A DNA stretch of 64,000 nucleotides from NCBI GenBank assembly GCA_963707755.1, contig CAVPRC010000008.1:191903-255902 (forward strand). Direction: 5' to 3'. Under the pieces are notes generated by a model. The model searched no databases, was not told the origin of the DNA, and saw only the letters and a program-made list of their open reading frames with translations. Made by a program: the position numbers and the translations under genes. Origin of the DNA: an uncultured Actinomycetota bacterium (GTDB lineage Bacteria > Actinomycetota > Actinomycetes > Propionibacteriales > Nocardioidaceae). This document shows, piece by piece, positions 4,034 to 20,464 of the stretch (position 1 is its first letter; each line of letters opens with the position of its first letter).

Positions 4034-5371
4034 CTAGCGCGGGTCGGTCTGCGGACGCCGCCGCACGGCCCGCGCCCGCAACGGGCCGACCAGGCGCGGG
4101 CCGGACAGCCTGCCCTCGAGGCGCCGCGCCTCGCGCTTGAGCGGCTGGGCGACGTACTCACCGAAGATCACGCCCGCGGCCAGCGCGATCGCGATGGCGG
4201 CCGCGTTGATCATCGAGATCAGGCCGTTGCCGCCCTCGGACAGCAGGTACAGCCCGCGGTAGATCGAGAGACCTGGCAGCAGCGGCACGATCGACGACAC
4301 CACGATCACGAGCGGCGGCACCCGCACCCTCGCCGCGACCGCGTAGCTGACCAGACCGATCAGCACCGAGGCGACGGCGCTCGCCCACGCGACCCCGAGG
4401 CCGCGGTCGAACGCCACGTAGAACAGCACCGCAGCCATCGCCGCGATCAACGCGATCGGGACCAGCGTGCGGGGCGGCGCGTAGCCCGAGAACGCGAACG
4501 CCGCGGCGGTGATCGCGGCACCGGTGGCCATCACCGGCAGCTCGCTGAACGACGCGAAGCCGGGGTCGAGCCGGCCGAGGTTCACCCCGAGCATCCGGCC
4601 AACGGTCAGGCCACCGCTGACGCCGGCGATGACACCGGACGTCGCCAGGATGGCCTCGAGGATCCGGGCCCCGGCGGTGAGCGGGAACCCGGTCAGGGCG
4701 TCCTGGATCGCGCCCATGAAGTTGATGCCGGCCAGCAGCAGGATGATGCCCGCGGTCACGACCCTCGACGGGTCGACGTCCACGCCGGCGGCGACGGTGC
4801 CCACCGCGATCAACGTGGCCAGCAGGCCTCCGGCGACCTGCTGGTAGAAGCCGGGCAGCCTGCGCCGCGTCATCTGCCGCTGGAGGAGGTCGACGCCGAC
4901 GGCGGCGAGGAACGCGATCAGGATCACCACCCAGTCACCGCCGACCAGCAGGCCGACGCCGCCGCCCATCACGCCGAGCCCGAGCGTCACGGCCCAGCGG
5001 GGCAGCCGGTGCCCGGACGACACGATCCGCGCCAGCTGGCTGCGGGCCTCGTCCCGGTCGATGGCACCCGCGATCAGGTCGCGGACCAGGTGGTCGACGA
5101 GGGTGAGGTCCTCGTAGTCGATCTCGCGGTGCCGGACCTGCCGGATCTGGATCATCGCCGGCTCGTCGAAGCTGCTCTGGTGGCTCATCGCCAGCTCGGT
5201 GAAGGTGACGTCCGCGGTCGCGGCGCGCAGCCCGCAGCCGTGCGCGACGTTCAGCATCGTCGCTCCGACGTCGGCCGCGCCGGCTCCCGAGGAGAGGAGC
5301 ACCTCACCGATCCGCAGGGAGAGGTCGAGGGTCTTGTAGGTGTCCCTGCTGGTGTCTTTGCTGTCCGCCAT
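4034..5371 (-). CDS. threonine/serine exporter family (ThrE-like, DUF1212+DUF3815) membrane protein
   Basis: Start at MADSKD. N-terminal soluble part LDLSLRIGEVLLSSGAGAADV, then about 10 Gly/Ala-rich TM helices. Confidence 0.8.
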   Translation of the reverse strand: MADSKDTSRDTYKTLDLSLRIGEVLLSSGAGAADVGATMLNVAHGCGLRAATADVTFTELAMSHQSSFDEPAMIQIRQVRHREIDYEDLTLVDHLVRDLIAGAIDRDEARSQLARIVSSGHRLPRWAVTLGLGVMGGGVGLLVGGDWVVILIAFLAAVGVDLLQRQMTRRRLPGFYQQVAGGLLATLIAVGTVAAGVDVDPSRVVTAGIILLLAGINFMGAIQDALTGFPLTAGARILEAILATSGVIAGVSGGLTVGRMLGVNLGRLDPGFASFSELPVMATGAAITAAAFAFSGYAPPRTLVPIALIAAMAAVLFYVAFDRGLGVAWASAVASVLIGLVSYAVAARVRVPPLVIVVSSIVPLLPGLSIYRGLYLLSEGGNGLISMINAAAIAIALAAGVIFGEYVAQPLKREARRLEGRLSGPRLVGPLRARAVRRRPQTDPR

Positions 5372-9175: not shown

Positions 9176-9410
9176 CGGACCGGTAGCGCGCCAGGATCTC
9201 CTCGACCTCGGCGTCCTCGCGGCGCGCCAGCGGCACCATCAGCTCGGTCACCAGGTCGGTCAGCTCGGCGACCCGTCGGTTGAGCCGGCGGTTCTCCTGC
9301 ACCTCGGCCTCCAGCGCGTCGAGCCGCGCGCGGACCCCTGCGCCGCGCGCGGCCTGCACACGCTGCGCGACCGTGCGCGCCGTGACGAGGTGGGTGCGCA
9401 GGTCAGACAC
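9168..9410 (-). CDS. small coiled-coil protein (DUF6752-like)
   Basis: GTG 9408-9410 overlaps the stop of the upstream LicD gene (9403-9405). LDALEAEVQENRRLNRRVAELTDLV suggests a coiled coil. Confidence 0.5.
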   Translation of the reverse strand: MSDLRTHLVTARTVAQRVQAARGAGVRARLDALEAEVQENRRLNRRVAELTDLVTELMVPLARREDAEVEEILARYRSVI

Positions 9411-10995
9411 GGGTGGCTCCTGAGGCTCGGGGGAAGGTGACCCGCAACCGGCAGGTGCGGGGGTCTGGGCGGTCGAAGACGTCGGTGCCGGGCCCGTCGT
9501 AGCGCTCCTCGACGCGGGCGCCGTAGCCCTCCAGCTCGGCGACCACCCGGTCCGCGTCGACGCGCTGCGCGAGACCGGCCGGCTCGACACCGGCCGGCAG
9601 CCCGGGCCCGGTGGCCGAGACCTCGAGGAACAGGCTGCCGCGGTCGCCGGCCAGCGCCATCCGGGCCAGTCGCCACAGGTTGCGGCGCGCCTCGTCGTCG
9701 AGCGCGTTCACCAGGTGCCGTGCGTAGACGTGCCGCCGTCCCGGCAGCAGGCCGATCTCCGCGCCGGTCACCGCGACGGTGCGCAGCTCCCCCAGCATCA
9801 GCCGGCGTACGACGGACGTGGCGCTGCTGCGACGCAGGCGCCGCTGGGTCCTGCTGCGCCCGTCGGGCGACACCTCGTAGGCGTGCACCCGGTGCCCCTG
9901 CCGCGCGAAGAACGCCGCGTCGCGACCGGTGCCCGAGCCGAGCTCGACGACCGTGTCGCCGCGCAGGATCCGACGACGGGTCCAGCGCGCGAAGTCGGAG
10001 CGGCTCTTCGGCACGTCGCGGACCTGCGGGCCGCGGAAGAAGGCGTTCCAGGCCGGCAGGTGGTCGCGGTAGCCGCGCAGCCAGCCGTCGAGCCGGCGCA
10101 CCCCGCCGGGCGGGTCGGTGAACCTGAACGAGGGGTCCGGGACCCGCCAGCCGGGGCCGTAGACGAACGCCAGCATCGCCTCCGGGTCGGCGGGCGCCGG
10201 CAGCTCCACCCCCTCGAGCACGATCGTCGAGGTGGGGGTGATCGCGCTCCGCGGCAGGTCGCCGCTGCGGTTGCCCAGCTGGTAGAACACGCCGTCGACG
10301 TAGAACGCGACGAACACGTCGACGTAGACGGTGCGCCGGTCGCCGAGCCTGAGCAGCACCTTGAAGTCGCCGCCGGACATCCGCACGGTCCGCCAGCCGC
10401 GGGCGAGCATGGCCCGTTCGAGGGCGTAGGACTCGCGGATGACGTCCGCGGGGTGGGTCCGCTCGCTGAGGTAGCACAGGTCGGCGTCGCAGTCGGTGCC
10501 GATCATCCGGCCCTCGCGGACCGCGCCGAGCAGGCAGCCGTAGTTGAGGTAGGCCTCGACGCCGCCGTGCTCACGCAGGTCGTCGAGCACGCGCGCCGTA
10601 CCCCGGAGGATCTCGGCGCGGGCCGCGTCGTCGGTCTCGGCGAACACCCGGGTCAGGTTGCCGACCTTGTTCACCGCGAGCGGGTGGCCGTGCGGGTCCT
10701 CGAGCCGGATCCGCTCCGTGCCGCCGCCGAGGGCGACCTCCTGGTCGACGTACGTGCGGCCGGTCCCGGGCTCGGCGAGGGTGAGCCGGGTGCGGCCTCG
10801 CAGGTGCGGCTGCAACGAGGCCGGCCAGGACACGACCAGCCCGCCGGGGCCCGGACGTGCGTCCCGCTGCGGCTGGAAGGACCAGACGTAGCGACCGTCG
10901 AAGGAGACGGTGACGACCCCGGACACGGAGGCGGGCAGCGTGAGTCCACGGTCGTCGACGTGGAACCCGTCGACGACCTGGTCGGTCGTGGTCAT
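9403..10995 (-). CDS. LicD-family phosphotransferase fused to class I SAM-dependent methyltransferase
   Basis: YGCLLGAVREGRMIGTDCDADLCY (LicD DxD core) in the middle. VVELGSGTGRDAAFFARQGHRVHAYE (SAM motif I) in the C-terminal third. About 110-aa unassigned N-terminal domain. Confidence 0.75.
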   Translation of the reverse strand: MTTTDQVVDGFHVDDRGLTLPASVSGVVTVSFDGRYVWSFQPQRDARPGPGGLVVSWPASLQPHLRGRTRLTLAEPGTGRTYVDQEVALGGGTERIRLEDPHGHPLAVNKVGNLTRVFAETDDAARAEILRGTARVLDDLREHGGVEAYLNYGCLLGAVREGRMIGTDCDADLCYLSERTHPADVIRESYALERAMLARGWRTVRMSGGDFKVLLRLGDRRTVYVDVFVAFYVDGVFYQLGNRSGDLPRSAITPTSTIVLEGVELPAPADPEAMLAFVYGPGWRVPDPSFRFTDPPGGVRRLDGWLRGYRDHLPAWNAFFRGPQVRDVPKSRSDFARWTRRRILRGDTVVELGSGTGRDAAFFARQGHRVHAYEVSPDGRSRTQRRLRRSSATSVVRRLMLGELRTVAVTGAEIGLLPGRRHVYARHLVNALDDEARRNLWRLARMALAGDRGSLFLEVSATGPGLPAGVEPAGLAQRVDADRVVAELEGYGARVEERYDGPGTDVFDRPDPRTCRLRVTFPRASGATRV

Positions 10996-11450
10996 CAGGC
11001 GAGCGCCGGCACCGCACGCGACGGCTGGGTGGCGGCCCGTCCCTGGACCGCCCGGCGCAGCATCGTGCTGGAGGTGTGCATCGTGTACGGGAAGTAGACG
11101 ACCTCGACCCCGACGGCACCCAGGCGCTCCTCGAGGGCGAGGCCCTTCGGGGTGCCACGCCAGTCGTCGCCCTTGAAGATCCGGTGGAAGCGCACGTCCT
11201 GCCAGGCGTCCCGCTTGTCGGTCGTGGTCTCGGCGTAGACCTGGTCGACGATGCCGACGCTGCGGACGATCTCGAGCCGCTCCTCGAGCGGCACGAACGG
11301 GCGAACGCCCTTGGTCAGCTCGCAGATCTCGTCGGCGACGACGCCGGCCACGAGGACGTCACAGTGCTCACGGGCCTGGCGCAGCACGTTGAGGTGACCC
11401 ACGTGGAACAGGTCGTAGGCGCCGGGTGCGTACCCGATCACTCCGCTCAT
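10995..11450 (-). CDS. cytidylyltransferase (TagD/glycerol-3-phosphate cytidylyltransferase-like)
   Basis: GYAPGAYDLFHVGHLNVLRQA (HxGH nucleotidyltransferase motif). Stop overlaps the LicD start (ATGA). Confidence 0.85.
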   Translation of the reverse strand: MSGVIGYAPGAYDLFHVGHLNVLRQAREHCDVLVAGVVADEICELTKGVRPFVPLEERLEIVRSVGIVDQVYAETTTDKRDAWQDVRFHRIFKGDDWRGTPKGLALEERLGAVGVEVVYFPYTMHTSSTMLRRAVQGRAATQPSRAVPALA

Positions 11451-11825
11451 CAGCCCTCCTGGAAGCCCACGGTCGAGAAGTTCTGATCTTACTATACTTA
11501 CTTACTCGACATTGTGGGCAGAAGGGTGCGTTGTCTCACCTCGCGCGTGTCGGGACGGGGACTCGCCGTACCGACGGCGGCGAGACCGAGACGCCCGGCC
11601 CGTTAGTGCTCCCCCGAGGTCAGCACTACCGGGTCGGGCGCTCGGTCTCGCCGTCGTCGGTGAGGTTCGCCAGCAGACAGACCTCGGCGTCGGCAAGCCT
11701 GCAGGCCTGCTCGATGAACCATCCGATCACTTCCCGCATGACCCCTCCCAGGGACAGCCCCGCCGGAAGAGGGTTGCCCCGCCCGCGGGGCTTGAAACAG
11801 CCACGCCGGTGGAATGCTGGGCGCC

Positions 11826-12756
11826 ATGGATCTCCGGGTGTTCACCGAGCCGCAGCAGGGTGCGACGTACGACGACCTGCTGGCCGTCGCACGACGCAGC
11901 GAGGAGCTCGGCTTCGGCGCGTTCTTCCGCTCCGACCACTACCTCGGCATGGGCACCGAGGGGCTGCCCGGCCCGACCGACGCCTGGCTGACGCTGGCCG
12001 GCCTGGCCCGCGACACCTCGACGATCCGGCTGGGCACGCTGATGACGTCGGCGACGTTCCGGCTGCCCGGCGTGCTGGCGATCTCGGTGGCGCAGGTCGA
12101 CCAGATGAGCGGTGGCCGGGTCGAGCTCGGGATCGGCGCGGGCTGGTACGAGGACGAGCACACGAAGTACGGCATCCCGTTCCCGCCGGTCGGCGAGCGC
12201 TTCGACCGGCTCGAGGAGACGCTGGCGATCGTCACCGGGCTGTGGGAGACGCCGAGCGGCGGCTCGTTCAGCCACGACGGCGAGCACTACCGCGTCACCG
12301 ACTCCCCCGCGCTGCCCAAGCCCGTGCAGTCGCCCCGCCCGCCGGTGATCGTCGGCGGCAAGGGCAAGCGGCGCACGCCCGCGCTCGCGGCGCGCTACGC
12401 CGACGAGTTCAACGTGCCGTTCGACTCGGTGGCAGACGAGCCGGTCGCTGATCGCGGGCGTGCGGGAGGCGTGCGAGACGGTGGGGCGCTCCCCCGACGA
12501 CCTGGTGTACTCCAACGCCCTGGTGCTCTGCGTCGGCCGGGACGAGGCCGAGGTGGCCCGACGCGCCGCCGCCATCGGCCGCGACGTCGACGAGCTCCGC
12601 GCGAACGGCGTCGCCGGCACCCCGCAGGAGGCCGTCGACACCCTCGCGGCGTACGCCGAGGCCGGGTCGTCGCGCGTCTACCTGCAGATGCTCGACCTCG
12701 CCGACCTCGACCACCTCGACCTCGTCGCCTCGGAGATCGCCCCTCATCTCCCCTGA
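11826..12756 (+). pseudogene. LLM-class (luciferase-like) F420-dependent oxidoreductase, frame broken near 12440
   Basis: MDLRVFTEPQQGATYDDLL...ELGIGAGWYEDEH in frame 3 continues as REACETVGRSPDDLVYSNALV...YLQMLDL in frame 1 (ORF 12460-12756). Confidence 0.8.
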
Positions 12757-13267
12757 CGCCGACCCGTCAGCTGGTAGGCACTCTCACCGGCGTGTCACAC
12801 GGCAAGTGACGGGTCAGGTTGCGCGCGGGTGACGGTGATGGCGGAGCTGGCGCAGCCCGACGACGTGCTCTGCAACGCGGACTTCTCGGCGCTGTCGAGG
12901 CTCAGCCGCCAGCGGATCTTCACCGCCACCCACTCCCGCAGGCAGCGGCAGGTGTCGTAGGTGGGCATCCAGGTGGTCGGGTCCTGGTCGCCCTTGGCCT
13001 GGTTGGCCGAGTCGGTCGGTCACGCCGACCAGCGTCCGGGCGTCCCGGGTCGGCGACAGGGGGGTCAGGGCAGGGGCAGCTCGTCCTTCGACGAGCCCGG
13101 CGGCACCTTGGCCGGCTCGACGGCCTCGTCGGCCTCGCCGGCCGAGAGCGAGCCGACTCGAGGCCGCACGAACCGCCACGTTTCCCCCGATCCCCCTCGG
13201 GGTACCTGCGACGGCAACCATCGGATGGCCTGCACGATCTGCGGCGCCAGGAACGGAGACCAGGGGA

Positions 13268-14248
13268 ATGAACGACGAACAGCCGGACATGGGTCTTTCG
13301 GACGAGGAGCTCGCCGCCCAGGGCGCGACCGCGCTCCCCGACAAGGAGGTCGTCTCCATCCTCGACCTCAACGCCGACATCGACCTGGCCATCGACGCGG
13401 CCGCCCCGATCGACCTCGCGGTCGCCGCGAACGCCAACGTGGCAGCGCCCATCGACGCCGCGGTCGGCGCCAACGTGCTGTCGATCGACTCCACCGCCCA
13501 GGCGCTGAGCGACCAGGGCGTGATCATCAACCAGGGCCTCGACGCGGACGCCTCGGCGCACGCCGTACAGGACAGCGCGCTCGACCAGAGCAACGACGTC
13601 GTCGACGCCGGCAACGGCGCGGCTCCTGCGGACGCTGCCGGGGCCACCGACGCCGGCGTCGCCCCCGAGGCTGCCACGGCCGCCCCGTCGGTCGGCAGCA
13701 CCGCGCTCGGCGACACAGGTGCGGCCACCGACGGCCTGACCGGCACGCTCGGCGACACCACGGGGACCGTGGGTGACGCTGCTGGCGGCGCGGTCGGCGA
13801 CACGGCCGGCACGGTCGGCGGCGCGGTCGGCGACACGGCCGGCACGGTCGGCGACACCGTCGGCGGGGCCACGGACGGTGTCGGAGGCACCGTGGGCGAT
13901 GCTGCCGGCGGTGTCGGCGGCGCGGTGGGCGGCGCTGTGGGCGGAGCGACCGGCGACCTCGGCGGCACGGTCGGCGGGGCCACGGGCGCGGCCGGCGGCC
14001 TGCTCGACGGCAACCTGCTCAACGTCGACGTCAACGTGGACGCCGATGCCGACATCGCGGCACCGATCAACGGCGCGGTCGCCGCGAACGCCAACGTGGC
14101 GGCCCCGATCGACGCGGCCGTCGGCGCCAACGTCGGCTCGGTCGGCAGCGACGCCATCGCCGTCTCGCAGCAGGACGCGATCATCAACCAGGACATCACC
14201 GGCTCGGCGGACGCGACGTCGGACCAGACGTCGGACATCCAGCAGTAG
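13268..14248 (+). CDS. Ala/Gly/Asp/Thr-rich repeat protein with duplicated ~75-aa end modules (unknown family)
   Basis: 326-aa ORF, ATG preceded by GGAGACCAGGGGA. Modules LNADIDLAIDAAAPIDLAVAANANVAAPIDAAVGANV... (N-terminal) and VDADADIAAPINGAVAANANVAAPIDAAVGANV... (C-terminal) flank GDTAGTVGG-type repeats. No signal peptide seen. Confidence 0.7.
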   Translation: MNDEQPDMGLSDEELAAQGATALPDKEVVSILDLNADIDLAIDAAAPIDLAVAANANVAAPIDAAVGANVLSIDSTAQALSDQGVIINQGLDADASAHAVQDSALDQSNDVVDAGNGAAPADAAGATDAGVAPEAATAAPSVGSTALGDTGAATDGLTGTLGDTTGTVGDAAGGAVGDTAGTVGGAVGDTAGTVGDTVGGATDGVGGTVGDAAGGVGGAVGGAVGGATGDLGGTVGGATGAAGGLLDGNLLNVDVNVDADADIAAPINGAVAANANVAAPIDAAVGANVGSVGSDAIAVSQQDAIINQDITGSADATSDQTSDIQQ

Positions 14249-14254
14249 TACCGG

Positions 14255-16769
14255 ATGGCCGTCCTGCCCGCCCCGGCCGGGCGTGAGGACGACGCGCTGG
14301 CGTCGTCCTCGCGCCCGGCTGCGCCGACCCCCGACGTCGCCTCCCGCGCCGACGGGGTCGAGCTCATCGGCGAGATGGTGGGCTCCGGCTACCGCGAGCC
14401 ACCCGCGCTCGCCCGACGCGGTGACGGCCAGACCTTCCAGCTGACGCCGCTGCTCTACCTGGTGCTGGAGACGGTCGACGGCCGGCGCTCCTACGACGAG
14501 GTCGCGGAGCGCGTGAGTGCTGCCTACGGCCGCACCGTCACCCCGGACAACGTGCGCACCCTCGTCGACCAGCAGCTGCGGCCGATGGGACTGCTCACCC
14601 GTCCGGACGGGTCGCAGCCCGAGGTGAAGAAGTCCAACCCGCTGCTCGCGCTGCGGTTCAAGTACGCCGTCACCGACCCGGAGCGCACCCGCCGGCTGAC
14701 CGCGCCGTTCGCCCGGCTGTTCAACCCCGTCGTCGTGGTCGCGGTGATGGTCGGCCTTCGCGGCCGTCTGCTGGTGGGTGTTCATGGAGAAGGGCCTGGC
14801 GTCCGCGACGTACCAAGCCTTCGACAAGCCCGGCCTCCTGCTCCTCGTCGTCGCGATCACGATCCTGTCCGCCGGCTTCCACGAGTTCGGCCACGCCGCG
14901 GCGGCGCGCCGCGGTGGGGCCACCCCCGGGGTGATGGGCGCCGGCATCTACCTCGTCTGGCCGGCGTTCTACACCGACGTCACCGACTCCTACCGGCTCG
15001 GGCGCGGCGGACGCGTGCGCACCGACCTGGGCGGTCTCTACTTCAACGCGATCGTCGCGGTCGCGGTGGCCGGCGTCTGGTGGCTGACCGGGTACGACGC
15101 CCTGCTGCTTCTCGTGGCGACCCAGATCCTGCAGATGGTGCGTCAGCTGACGCCGCTCGTGCGCTTCGACGGCTACCACGTGCTCGCCGACCTCACCGGC
15201 GTGCCCGACCTGTTCCACCGGATCAAGCCGACCCTGCTCGGCGTGCTGCCCTGGCGCTGGAGGCACCCCGAGACCCGGGTGCTGAGGCCGTGGGCACGGG
15301 CCGTGGTGACGCTGTGGGTCGTCGTGGTCGTGCCGATGCTGGCCTTCTCGCTGTTCACGATGGTGCTCACGCTGCCCCGCATCCTGGGCACCGCCCGGGC
15401 CAGCGTCGAGAAGCAGTCCACGCTGCTCGGCCTCGCCTGGTCCGACACCGACCTGCTCGAGACGGCGGCCCGCTGCATCGCGATCGTGGCGGTCGCCTTC
15501 CCGATCCTGGCCACCGCGGTGATCCTGTTCCGGCTGGTTCGCAAGATCGTCGGCTCCACCTGGCGGCGCACCCGCGGGCGTCCGGTACGCCGCGGGCTGG
15601 CCGGCCTGGTCGCCGCCGCCCTGGTCGCCGGCCTCGCCTGGGCCTGGTGGCCGCACCCCGGCACCTACCGGCCGATCGAGCCGTACGAAGGCGGCACGCT
15701 GGTGCAGGCCGCGCAGGCGCTGCCCGTCGTCCCGCGCTCCGCGCCGACCCGGCTCGTCGAGGGCCAGCGGGGCAGCCTGGTCACCGGCTGGTCCGACGAC
15801 GACCCGAGGCCCACCCGATCACACCCGCAGCTCGCGCTGGTGCTGGTCCCCCGCGACGGCGGCGCGACCGGCGCCACGGGCGGAGGCGTGGCTTCCGCGG
15901 CCGACGGCGGTGCCGCCGCACCGGTCGGGGGCACGGGCGCGGCCACCGGCGACAGCACGGGCGCCGCGGCCCAACCGTGGGTGTTCCCGTTCAACAAGCC
16001 GCTCGCCCCCGAGGCCGGCGACAACCAGGCGATGGCCGTCAACACCAACGACAACACGATCCGCTACGACGTGGCGTTCGCGCTGGTGTGGATCGAGGAC
16101 GACTCCCCCGCCCTGAACACCAACGAGGCCTACGCGTTCGCGAGCTGCACCAACTGCGCGGCGGTCGCGATCGGCTTCCAGATCGTCCTGGTCACCGGCG
16201 ACAACCACGTCGCCGTGCCGCAGAACATCTCGGCCGCGGTCAACTACGACTGCGTCAACTGCCTCACCTATGCCCTCGCCACGCAGCTCTTCGTGACCCT
16301 CGACGGCCCGCTCAGCGACGCCGGCCGGCAGCAGATCGCGGCGCTGTGGCAGCAGATCGCCGACTTCGGCACGCACATCACGGAGGTGCCGCTCTCCGAG
16401 GTGCGCGACCGGCTGACGTCGTACGAGCAGCAGATCCTGGCCGTCATCGAGAAGGAGCAGGGACCGCTGACCCCGGACGCCACGGCCACGGCCGCGGCCG
16501 ACGCCGGCGCGACCCCGAGCCCGTCGGTCGAAGGCAGCGACGGCGCGGCACCGAGCGCCGAGGCCTCGCCCGGCGCGGGGACCCCGTCCGACACCGCCAC
16601 GGGTACGACGGGCGGCAGCACCGGCGACGCGGGCAGCACCGGTGGCGCGACGAGCGGTGCGACGACCACCGGCACGGACCCGTCCCCGACCCCGACGGAC
16701 GCGCCGACCACGCCGACCACGCCGGATCCCTCACCGAGCGCGACCCCGTCGGCCGACGCCACCCCGTAG
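14255..16769 (+). pseudogene. PqqD/RRE-like domain fused to M50-type (HEFGH) polytopic membrane metalloprotease, frame broken near 14750
   Basis: The N-terminal part (14255 frame) FQLTPLLYLVLETVDGRRSYDEVAERV...VRTLVDQQLRPMGLL looks PqqD-like. It continues in the 14778 frame: ILSAGFHEFGHAAAARR ... FDGYHVLADL. The C-terminus has two CxxC pairs and a Thr/Pro/Ser-rich tail. Confidence 0.75.
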
Positions 16770-16859: not shown

Positions 16860-18233
16860 CTACCGCACCCAGACCGTGACGAGGTTCGAGGTCGCCGCCA
16901 ACCGGTAGGTGTCCGCGATCGACACCGCCTTGTAGGTCGTGGACCGGCGCGGCCGGACGGTGGTGGAGTACCACCCCGTCGGTGCGAGGCTCTTCGACGC
17001 CCGCACGTAGGTCCAGCGACCGCCTCGCGCCGGCCGCTTGTAGAACCGGACGTACTTGCCCGTCACCGCACCCAGCGACGTCTTCAGGTGGCCGTAGACC
17101 ATCACGGCCGCGCCCTTGCGGACGCGCGACGTCTTGTTCTTGTGCAGGTAGACGGTGGGCTTGAGCTTGGCAGGCGTGCTCACCCGGCTCGGCGCCGAGG
17201 CGGAGCCCGCGTAGACCGTGTCACCGGCGAACGCCACCGAGTAGTCGGTCGCCTGCGACACCGGGGTCGTGAACGAGTAGTGACCGGCCGGGTCCGTGTT
17301 GATCGTGCTGACGGCGCTCCAGGCCGTGGCGCCGACGGCCCGCGCGTACAACGTCACCGGCAGACCGGCCAGCACACTGGAGTCGGCGGTCTTGCGGAGG
17401 TCGCCGGCGAACGTGACGGGACCGTTGATCGCGGTTGTCGTCGACGCGGACGGTGTGAGCGTGACGTTGGTCGGTTCGCCGGTCGGGATCGTGACCCCCG
17501 GAGGCACGGGGGCGCTCGAGCCGCCAGTGGTGTTCGCGAGGGAAGCGAGCTGCGCCGTCGTGCCGTTGAAGCGGTTCATGTCGACGTTGCCGGAGATGCC
17601 GCTCACCGTGCCGCTGCTGGTGCGCTGCCAGAACGTCCAGGTCGGCCAGCCACCGGGCACCCGTGGTGTCGAGACGCCGTAGTGCGCGATCCACAACGGG
17701 TAGTGGGTGAAGGCCGTGCTGTTGCCCAGGTAGTGCTCCCAGAACGCCGGGGACACGTAGATCATCGGGGTGCGGCCGGTGAGCTGCTCGACCGTCTGCA
17801 GCCAGGTCGCGGTCCAGTTCCTCAGGTCCGTGACGCCCAGCCCGCCGCTGGCTTCGAGGTCGAGCACGGGCGGGAGCGTGCCGGCGCCCTGGAAGGACCC
17901 CACCTTGGAGACGAAGTAGTTGGCCTGGGCCGGCGCCGTGCCGACCTTGGGACGGGCGAAGTGGTAGGCGCCGCGGTACATCCCGACCGCCTGGACGCCC
18001 GCCCAGTTGGTCGCGAGCTGGGTGTCGGTGTACGTCGTGGACTCGGTCGCCTTCATGAACGCGAACTGCATCCCGGCGGCCTTGACCTTCGACCAGTTGA
18101 TCGTGCCCTGCCAGTGCGAGACGTCGACGCCGTCGGCGTAGGCCAGGGTCGAGGCCAGCAAGGCCGCGAACGACGTCACGAGCACCACGACGAGGCGTCG
18201 GGCGCGACGCGCGGCAGCAGCGGTAGTCCTCAC
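16860..18233 (-). CDS. secreted GH25 muramidase (lysozyme) with C-terminal Ig-like/beta-rich domains
   Basis: Signal peptide RRLVVVLVTSFAALLASTLAYA. GVDVSHWQGTINWSKVKAAGMQFAFMKATE and GAYHFARP are GH25 motifs. Confidence 0.85.
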   Translation of the reverse strand: MRTTAAAARRARRLVVVLVTSFAALLASTLAYADGVDVSHWQGTINWSKVKAAGMQFAFMKATESTTYTDTQLATNWAGVQAVGMYRGAYHFARPKVGTAPAQANYFVSKVGSFQGAGTLPPVLDLEASGGLGVTDLRNWTATWLQTVEQLTGRTPMIYVSPAFWEHYLGNSTAFTHYPLWIAHYGVSTPRVPGGWPTWTFWQRTSSGTVSGISGNVDMNRFNGTTAQLASLANTTGGSSAPVPPGVTIPTGEPTNVTLTPSASTTTAINGPVTFAGDLRKTADSSVLAGLPVTLYARAVGATAWSAVSTINTDPAGHYSFTTPVSQATDYSVAFAGDTVYAGSASAPSRVSTPAKLKPTVYLHKNKTSRVRKGAAVMVYGHLKTSLGAVTGKYVRFYKRPARGGRWTYVRASKSLAPTGWYSTTVRPRRSTTYKAVSIADTYRLAATSNLVTVWVR

Positions 18234-19658: not shown

Positions 19659-20464
19659 GTGCCGGTGAGTTCGGGGGAGCTGTGGGATCGGCTGACGTTC
19701 GGGCGGGCGCGGAGGCGTCGACGCCTGATGCGCCTGGTCATGTGGGACGACGCCCCGCGGCCGGTGCGTGACCGTTCGGGGGCCAAGGGACTGTTCGGCG
19801 TGCTCGGCGCCACGCTCGTGCTGCTGGCCGTCGTCGGGTCGCCGGCACCTCAGGCACCTCCGCGTCGCCGCCTGGCGGGTCGTTCGCGTTCCTGGACCAC
19901 CAGCCCGGCACCCCGTCGGTCCCCGTCACGTGGAGCTCCTGCAAGCCCATCCACGTCGTGGTCAACGACGCGCTGGCGCCGCCCGGCGGCTGGGACGTCC
20001 TGATGGCCGCGCTCGACCAGGTGCACGAGGCGTCCGGACTGGAGTTCGCCGTCGACGGGCGGACGTCCGCGCTGCCCGAGGGCAGCGTGCGCTCACCCAA
20101 CGGCATCGACTGGGACCCCGTGCTGGTCGCGTGGACGACGCCGGAGCAGGCCCCGCGGCTCGAGGGCAACGTGGACGGGTTCGGCGGCAGCTCGGCGATG
20201 ACGGACCGGGTGTCCGGCAAGAAGTACTACGTCACCGGTCGCATCGCCCTGGACGCACCCCAGCTCACCAGGGAGCTGAACAGCCTCCACGGCGCGGATG
20301 GCGTGCGGGGCGTGATCGTCCACGAGCTCGGCCACGTCCTCGGCCTCGCCCACGTGAACGACGGCAACGAGACCATGAACAAGAGCGCGCGTCGCGACGG
20401 CCGGCTCGGCCCCGGTGACCGGATCGGCTTCGGGCAGGTCGGCGCCGGCCCCTGCTACGGGTAG
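19659..20464 (+). pseudogene. membrane-anchored matrixin/metzincin-like metalloprotease, frame broken near 19850
   Basis: N-terminus (LWDRLTFGRARRRRR + TM) is in frame 3. The remainder (SFAFLDHQPG...SSCKPIHVVVNDAL...VHELGHVLGLAHV) is in frame 2. It aligns along its length with the intact paralogue at 21148-22029. Confidence 0.7.

Follow-up and report, generated by a model that had tools for sequence, protein, structure and literature searches.

A conserved actinobacterial gene pair encoding an acidic, precursor-like protein and an RRE-bearing intramembrane metalloprotease

Daptide clusters encode a protein, MpaP, in which a recognition element for peptides that are made by the ribosome and modified after translation (RiPPs) is fused N-terminally to an intramembrane site-2 protease, and the corresponding daptide precursors are cut after the Pro that ends an acidic N-terminal motif containing 'EL' (PMC10028931). 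The M50 proteases that remove leaders from RiPPs have been reviewed, with one of them, EpeP, thought both to cleave and to export its peptide (PMC10885120). Here we describe a two-gene 'cassette' found in a 64,000-nucleotide (nt) stretch of DNA ('the window') from an uncultured Actinomycetota bacterium of the family Nocardioidaceae (contig CAVPRC010000008.1, positions 191,903 to 255,902), in which a gene for an acidic, precursor-like protein of 326 amino acids (aa) is followed directly by a gene for an intramembrane metalloprotease that carries a RiPP recognition element (RRE). We consider it probable that the pair forms a self-contained maturation unit, in which the membrane protease removes a leader from its acidic partner.

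Like MpaP, the protease joins an RRE, at its N-terminus, to an intramembrane metalloprotease of the HExxH kind and, like daptide precursors, its partner has an acidic N-terminal motif that contains 'EL' and ends in Pro. Unlike daptides, which are made from hydrophobic peptides of 40-60 aa with a C-terminal Thr, the partners in this family are two-domain polyanions of 215-330 aa (and the 326-aa protein of the window ends in Gln); unlike daptide clusters, the 80 loci compared here conserve neither MpaB/C/D/M tailoring genes nor a transporter; and unlike MpaP, the protease possesses approximately 370 extra C-terminal residues, which make up three more transmembrane (TM) helices, a CxxC beta domain that faces outward and a Thr/Pro tail. 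The protease also resembles YydH, EpeP and LiaK, which are polytopic HExxH...DG metalloproteases that act as leader-removers in their own systems, and the proposal that EpeP cleaves and exports its peptide offers a parallel for a cassette in which no separate transporter is encoded. However, YydH, EpeP and LiaK lack an RRE, and work with a radical S-adenosylmethionine epimerase and an ATP-binding cassette (ABC) transporter, neither of which is found near the cassette. With PqqD and other RREs, the N-terminal domain shares a winged-helix fold of a three-stranded sheet and three helices, but it is the N-terminal part of a membrane protease, and neither stands by itself nor is attached to a modifying enzyme.

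A first-pass annotation of the window, made from its sequence, had stated that no system with this architecture was described. That statement is too broad for the fusion of an RRE to a site-2 protease, which is known from MpaP; the kind of substrate, the missing tailoring genes and the C-terminal module do appear to be new. A literature search that paired RRE or PqqD with M50 or site-2 protease returned only daptide and epipeptide work, and in the literature searched there was no protein-sized, polyanionic substrate with duplicated domains, no cassette lacking tailoring and transport genes, no addition of three TM helices and an extracytoplasmic CxxC domain, and no counterpart of the two-Cys peptides that are encoded by a sister clade (below). 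The system works like a RiPP leader-peptidase pair, yet scores below the equivalog cutoffs of the daptide and epipeptide models.

The gene pair, its leader motif and the acidic partner

The two genes of the cassette were delimited from the open reading frames (ORFs) of the window and from alignments to their homologs, together with synteny in the case of the first gene:

13268..14248, plus strand: gene for the 326-aa acidic, precursor-like protein
14255..16769, plus strand: gene for the RRE-intramembrane metalloprotease, 837 aa once an extra base is dropped

The TAG of the precursor gene is separated by six bases (TACCGG) from the ATG of the protease gene at 14255 (a gap that had first been counted as 7 nt), and the protease gene ends with a stop codon at 16767-16769. 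No obvious ribosome-binding site is present in the 6-nt gap, and translation of the protease is probably coupled to that of the precursor gene. Homologs numbered more than 3,228 for the 326-aa protein and, for the protease, more than 5,000 (typically 760-890 aa in length, and uninterrupted); with thousands of homologs of each, both genes are real, rather than chance ORFs.

When one genome per species was scanned, the protease was found to be encoded in at least 550 species of soil actinobacteria, distributed among the Nocardioidaceae, Arthrobacter/Pseudarthrobacter, Mycolicibacterium, Kribbella and the Pseudonocardiales. Of the 80 loci retrieved, 78 have both domains of the partner protein immediately upstream of the protease and on its strand, and the contigs of the other two end at the protease, so that adjacency is complete in the loci where it can be scored (78/78). 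Co-occurrence and synteny, which had been proposed as a check on the pairing, are therefore strict. An all-against-all clustering of the ORFs located within ±6 kb of the protease in the 80 loci revealed no third conserved gene (the next commonest neighbour being present in 18/80), which extends to these loci the initial observation that no modifying enzyme or exporter is adjacent to the pair.

The N-terminus of the 326-aa protein contains a motif that ties it to much shorter peptides:

13268..13339, plus strand: predicted leader, residues 1-24 (MNDEQPDMGLSDEELAAQGATALP), from sequence comparison
13298..13357, plus strand: leader motif S11-DEEL-AAQGATA-LP-DK-E-VV-S30, from a gap-free alignment with sister-clade peptides

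Within the cassettes, the consensus of this motif is S-x-E-E-L-x7-L-P-[DE]-[KR]-x-V-[VL]-S. Two Streptomyces homologs of the protease, detected on plasmids with tblastn, are 42% identical to it over the RRE and membrane core and lack its C-terminal domain, and a protein search expanded this Streptomyces/Actinomadura 'sister clade' to thousands of proteases of 410-640 aa. In each of the six sister loci examined (6/6), one or two short ORFs (70-133 aa) are situated upstream of the protease, on the same strand:

L081: 3918-4145 and 5816-6076
L082: 6298-6510
L084: 3804-4097 and 4380-4781
L085: 4144-4374 and 4540-4905
L086: 3998-4267 and 4570-4896
L087: 4163-4429 and 4549-4893

All but one of the encoded peptides begin with '...S[FY]EEL..[LV].GELLPER.VL[SG]', followed by a Gly-rich spacer and a core of approximately 40 aa that is bounded by two Cys residues. 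The exception, from L082, has a variant leader (QL...ELLPGREALG), and its core is unlike the others, being rich in Q and containing just one Cys. No tailoring enzyme is recognisable near the sister-clade cassettes, and their two-Cys peptides appear to be an undescribed peptide family. The cassette of the window is like those of Streptomyces and Actinomadura in its gene order, strand and the spacing of its leader motif; it is unlike them in that their partners are only 70-133 aa long and their proteases are without the C-terminal beta domain.

The window protein aligns with the sister peptides without gaps, with L15, L23 and P24 invariant. Scanning 2.38 million six-frame residues (the window plus 87 loci) with the regular expression EL.{7}LP.[RK].[VA][LVM][SG] gave 52 hits, all of them at the N-termini of genes located just upstream of the protease, with none elsewhere. 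A shared motif with identical spacing argues that the first 30 or so residues of the window protein are homologous to the leaders of the short peptides and, if residues 1 to ~30 are a leader, the 326-aa protein is likely to be the substrate of the protease, as the first-pass annotation had presumed.

The remainder of the protein consists of two related domains separated by a linker:

13340..13603, plus strand: end-domain 1 (DKEVVSILDLNAD...AAPIDLAVAANANVAAPIDAAVGANVLS...Q-rich hairpin), nearly invariant across genera (alignment, and tblastn in 78 loci)
13604..14002, plus strand: Gly/Thr/Asp/Ala-rich linker with degenerate 9-21-nt DNA repeats (alignment; predicted local distance difference test (pLDDT) 29-47)
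14003..14245, plus strand: end-domain 2, a paralog of domain 1 (54% identity)

The architecture is thus leader, domain 1, variable linker, domain 2. The description of a modular repeat protein that was given at first holds to the extent that two homologous end-domains of ~80 aa are present; the repeat is not a uniform one. These two domains are 54% identical to one another and nearly invariant between genera, and the linker is hypervariable in length among homologs (from ~0 to ~150 aa). In composition the protein is extreme: 42 Asp, 5 Glu, a single Lys, no Arg, and no Phe, Trp, Tyr or Cys, for a net charge of approximately -46. It has no hydrophobic N-terminus and, as was initially stated, no signal peptide. 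In an AlphaFold2 (AF2) model, only two hairpins come near a pLDDT of 70, and in end-domain 1 nothing is predicted beyond a beta-hairpin of low confidence at residues 84-106.

Membership of the partner in a characterised structural family with an unrelated role would have undermined the proposed system; the protein matched no family in Pfam or NCBIfam (at E-values up to 1 in both), PADLOC or the Protein Data Bank (PDB). A search of 1.8 billion representative proteins with a profile of the end-domain yielded no more than 410 clusters, in which two-domain members of this family predominate, and the end-domain is, at the level of sequence, without informative distant relatives. Some RefSeq/UniRef homologs bear the automatic label 'peptidoglycan-binding protein', which was set aside: no domain of that kind (LysM, PG_binding or SPOR type) is present according to Pfam and NCBIfam, and there is no signal peptide. 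The label is the point in favour of viewing the two genes as co-transcribed neighbours with unrelated functions, one encoding an acidic surface or 'peptidoglycan-binding' structural protein and the other a protease with different substrates. We regard that explanation as highly improbable, given that no peptidoglycan-binding or other domain can be detected in a protein that also lacks a signal peptide, that the genes are adjacent in 78/78 loci and are separated here by 6 nt, and that a leader motif is common to the partners of homologous proteases.

A second explanation is that the cassette belongs to a true RiPP-type pathway, with its tailoring enzymes and transporter encoded elsewhere in the genome, in which modification precedes leader removal and the two end-domains serve as two cores. 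The combination of an RRE and a leader is typical of RiPPs, and duplicated cores are also present in a sister-clade peptide (L085 4540-4905, the one such peptide with two in tandem). [quoted passage not shown] A hidden pathway of this type therefore seems very unlikely.

The RRE-protease

The protease is composed of a cytoplasmic domain, a membrane core and an extracytoplasmic region, with these features:

14342..14629, plus strand: cytoplasmic RRE/PqqD-like winged-helix domain, residues ~30-125 (AF2, Foldseek and NCBIfam)
14729..15650, plus strand: membrane core of seven predicted TM helices, N-terminus inside and C-terminus outside (hydropathy, positive-inside count and long AF2 helices)
14880..14894, plus strand: HEFGH zinc-binding/catalytic motif in TM2 (invariant in 78 homologs)
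15144..15173, plus strand: QLTPLVRFDG(YH), the counterpart of the site-2-protease motif NxxPxxxLDG (conservation in 78 homologs)
15966..16460, plus strand: extracytoplasmic beta domain with two invariant CxxC pairs and two helices (AF2)
16146-16157, plus strand: CTNC (sequence)
16251-16262, plus strand: CVNC (sequence)
16461..16766, plus strand: disordered, Thr/Pro/Ser/Gly-rich C-terminal tail (AF2 pLDDT 29-37)

An AF2 model was constructed on P0121, an intact homolog of 827 aa that is 95-96% identical overall to the window protease, using 78 homologs (mean pLDDT 75). Residues 20-110 of P0121 were modelled at pLDDT 82-97, with three strands followed by three helices (E26-28, E41-44, E50-53, H55-63, H70-81 and H87-98). 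When the whole model was submitted to Foldseek, PqqD (5sxy) was the sole solved structure matched at high probability: 0.96, with a target-normalised TM-score of 0.61 and a root mean square deviation (rmsd) of 3.6 Å over an alignment of 97 columns at 23% identity, and with an E-value of only 0.22, the query being the entire 827-aa model. The nominal top hits of that search, a SufBD beta-helix and the FapC amyloid, were not used (probability <=0.3, rmsd >11 Å). Intact homologs of the protease give a single contiguous match, encompassing both the RRE and the core, to positions 19-291 of the 379 in the NCBIfam model daptide_HExxH (NF041824), at E-values of 1e-27 to 1.2e-31 and with 96-110 bits, below the equivalog cutoff of 300. 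The YydH/LiaK model (NF058609) is matched at E 1e-7 with 28-33 bits, also below its cutoff (225); the N-terminus matches the RRE end of ApyI more weakly in NCBIfam, and TIGR03859 was reached only below threshold.

Within the membrane core, HEFGH occupies residues 209-213, in a hydrophobic segment at 193-211. In the second motif (residues 297-306), the Q, P, V, R, F, D and G are invariant among the 78 homologs; its spacing is equal to that of NxxPxxxLDG, from which it differs in having Q for N and F for L. We take QLTPLVRFDG to be the second motif of M50 proteases, on the basis of established knowledge of that family, and by the same analogy its Asp would be the third zinc ligand. By the counts of Lys and Arg, the cytoplasmic parts are the RRE and the loops that follow TM2, TM4 and TM6, and the C-terminal region lies outside. 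The first-pass annotation had read the protein as a PqqD-type RRE, an M50/YydH-like polytopic core and an extracytoplasmic domain with two CxxC pairs and a Thr/Pro-rich tail, and that reading is borne out in each of its parts: by the modelled fold, the 5sxy match and the contiguous NCBIfam alignment in the first, by the invariant motifs and seven predicted helices in the second, and by the location of two invariant pairs in a domain assigned to the outside in the third.

The C-terminal domain was modelled at pLDDT 85-97, as six long strands followed by helices at residues 678-725 (P0121). It matches no family in Pfam, NCBIfam or PADLOC and no sequence in the PDB; a sub-threshold CATRA-N hit (E 0.002) to its helical end was dismissed as coiled-coil noise. 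Three internal repeats of ~34 aa are suggestive only (pairwise hhalign E 0.05-0.27), and the idea that the domain is related to the partner protein, for which it might act as a template, was not supported (hhalign probability 0.1, E 0.56). Every one of the 81 loci with a large acidic partner has the domain (81/81), and the six sister-clade loci all lack it, a distribution that points to a functional tie between the two. In addition, stand-alone paralogs of the domain are located directly upstream of the cassette in two Pseudarthrobacter loci. One of these (L069 5800-6549, plus strand, 249 aa) carries a Sec-type signal peptide, which provides independent support for an extracytoplasmic location; the other (L061, at about 4524-5003) was seen as a tblastn hit only.

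In the sequence as deposited, the protease is encoded in frame 2 over 14255-14752 and then in frame 0 over 14754-16769, which pins the break first noticed near 14750 to a single base:

14753..14753, plus strand: one surplus G within TM helix 1, at which the frame is lost (alignment to L001)

Its removal yields the 837-aa protease, whose junction ('...NPVVVVAVMVAFAAVCWWVFMEKGLAS') is identical to that of P0121. In a base-by-base comparison with the syntenic relative L001, which has 92% nt identity over the cassette genes, this G is the only isolated indel in the conserved stretch. An isolated extra C at 12433, again relative to L001, splits the gene for a luciferase-like (F420/FMN-type) oxidoreductase at 11814-12756 (plus strand), so that two single-base insertions are found 2.3 kb apart, in unrelated and otherwise well-conserved genes. 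Many relatives of the window record are MFD-labelled metagenome-assembled genomes. That the frame is broken as given, and that the public record calls only the downstream part of the protein (P0128, a truncated form of 661 aa), might indicate a decaying pseudogene, in which the extra G is real, the RRE is severed from the catalytic core, leaving the system without activity. We think this rather unlikely: the flanks on both sides of the junction are identical to P0121, no other damage is apparent, the unrelated oxidoreductase gene carries an insertion of the same kind, and single-base indel errors are common in metagenome-assembled genomes such as the related records. The second insertion in a neighbouring gene and the nature of those records both favour an error, and the extra G is most likely one of sequencing or assembly, rather than biology.

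A model for leader removal, and competing explanations

The preferred reading, of a leader-bearing acidic precursor matured by its RRE-protease, can be described as a short series of steps. The cytoplasmic N-terminal RRE would dock the leader of the precursor, a step for which the leader motif conserved among the partners of homologous proteases gives indirect support, and the HEFGH/FDG site, near the cytoplasmic face of the membrane, would then cut that leader off. By analogy with daptides, the cut may fall right after the invariant Leu-Pro, that is, after Pro24. The predicted product is a protein of ~300 residues that would be extremely acidic and without aromatic residues or Cys, and its most likely destination is the cell surface, where the clade-specific CxxC beta domain and the Thr/Pro tail of the protease may handle or retain it.

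Several points weigh against this interpretation. There is no demonstrated case in which a ~30-kDa polyanion is exported without a transporter dedicated to it. The position of the cut is assigned by analogy only, and the spacing from EL to P differs from that of the daptide motif ELExMEAP. The familiar domain models respond weakly: Pfam PqqD (PF05402) is matched below its gathering score (E 0.04-0.21, 12-15 bits vs 23.4), as is Peptidase_M50 (PF02163; E 0.5-1.7, 8-10 bits vs 27.2). Profile searches of the PDB, with the RRE and with the whole protease, produced nothing meaningful, and no solved site-2 protease is found among the top 50 Foldseek hits or in the PDB sequence search. AF2 gives the 326-aa protein no confident fold (pLDDT 47.9, predicted template modelling score 0.19, from an alignment of 54 sequences). 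Finally, the protease ORF is interrupted in this assembly, so the locus could be inactive.

A bolder version of the same scheme assigns more to the protease, as a one-protein machine that would process, export and anchor a protein-sized RiPP-style precursor without Sec, Tat or an ABC transporter, and whose CxxC domain would capture the product, or nucleate its assembly, into a surface polymer or a cation-binding layer. This version as a whole is, in our estimate, improbable. Such a machine, if real, would mean that actinobacteria possess a secretion route, and a class of surface protein, that are both new.

A different view begins from signalling, in which M50 proteases classically participate. 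In Bacillus, the M50 intramembrane protease SpoIVFB removes a short N-terminal pro-sequence from pro-sigma-K, a full-size protein that is not itself transmembrane. By comparison, the beta domain of the protease described here might sense an envelope cue and so gate, by regulated intramembrane proteolysis, the removal of a pro-sequence from a cytoplasmic acidic effector, with the product remaining inside the cell as, for example, a polyanionic decoy or regulator. The large outward-facing domain on the protease, the lack of a conserved exporter nearby, and a product with a net charge of -46 and no signal peptide are all consistent with that arrangement. There is a further likeness, in that an extra cytoplasmic domain engages the substrate of SpoIVFB, as the RRE would here, although in SpoIVFB it is a C-terminal CBS domain, rather than an N-terminal RRE; the substrate of SpoIVFB, in contrast, is a sigma factor, and no sequence relationship was detected beyond the M50 motifs. 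We nevertheless judge a signalling role to be unlikely, because the sister cassettes encode short two-Cys peptides that resemble secreted products rather than regulators, the closest characterised relatives of the protease (MpaP and YydH/EpeP) are biosynthetic leader peptidases, and neither a regulator nor a sigma factor is conserved in the neighbourhood.

Surrounding genes and implications

The cassette's neighbours in the window do not belong to the two-gene unit; they encode a LicD/methyltransferase protein, a cytidylyltransferase, the luciferase-like oxidoreductase, a GH25 muramidase and a zinc alcohol dehydrogenase. Features of the surroundings are:

9403-11450, minus strand: LicD-plus-methyltransferase fusion (530 aa) and cytidylyltransferase (151 aa), with overlapping stop and start codons
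12757-13267, ~510 nt 5' of the precursor gene: no convincing ORF
16860-18233, minus strand: gene for a GH25 muramidase that has a long C-terminal extension; it converges on the protease gene
19958-20464, plus strand: small matrixin-like (Peptidase_M10) HExxHxxGxxH protein, 168 aa

The LicD fusion and the cytidylyltransferase are genes of teichoic-acid or phosphocholine-type envelope decoration, and show no conservation with the cassette. The GH25 muramidase was considered as a conserved partner and rejected, being common only to the three closest relatives and one sister locus; a GH25-ricin protein is encoded downstream of a sister-clade cassette (L085 7591-9933), and the recurrence of GH25 near cassettes is probably a coincidence. 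A scan of the region from 12 to 17.5 kb for promoter and terminator consensus sequences (sigma-70-like) and with Rfam found nothing. Relative to the window at ~13135-13155, L001 contains ~2.6 kb of additional DNA (L001 2332-4950) between its oxidoreductase and precursor genes, which is equivalent to a deletion in the window. An isolated 1-nt difference from L001 at 20235, inside the matrixin-like gene, is possibly an indel error in either assembly.

To our knowledge, RREs and leader peptides are regarded as a hallmark of small-peptide natural-product pathways. If the maturation of the acidic protein by its RRE-protease is confirmed, leader-guided intramembrane proteolysis would be extended from peptides to proteins of 215-330 aa, without the involvement of tailoring enzymes, and a large and uncharacterised family of precursor plus RRE-protease cassettes would be defined, with the two-Cys peptides of Streptomyces and Actinomadura among its members. 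Those peptides may prove to be unmodified secreted peptides, and the polyanionic protein and the new extracytoplasmic domain are candidates for a part in the biology of the cell envelope. The leader motif, EL-x7-LP-x-[RK]-x-[VA]-[LVM]-[SG], provides a 'handle' for the mining of genomes for further members. The unit is an extension of a principle already known and does not establish a new one; it is widespread, uncharacterised and mechanistically suggestive.

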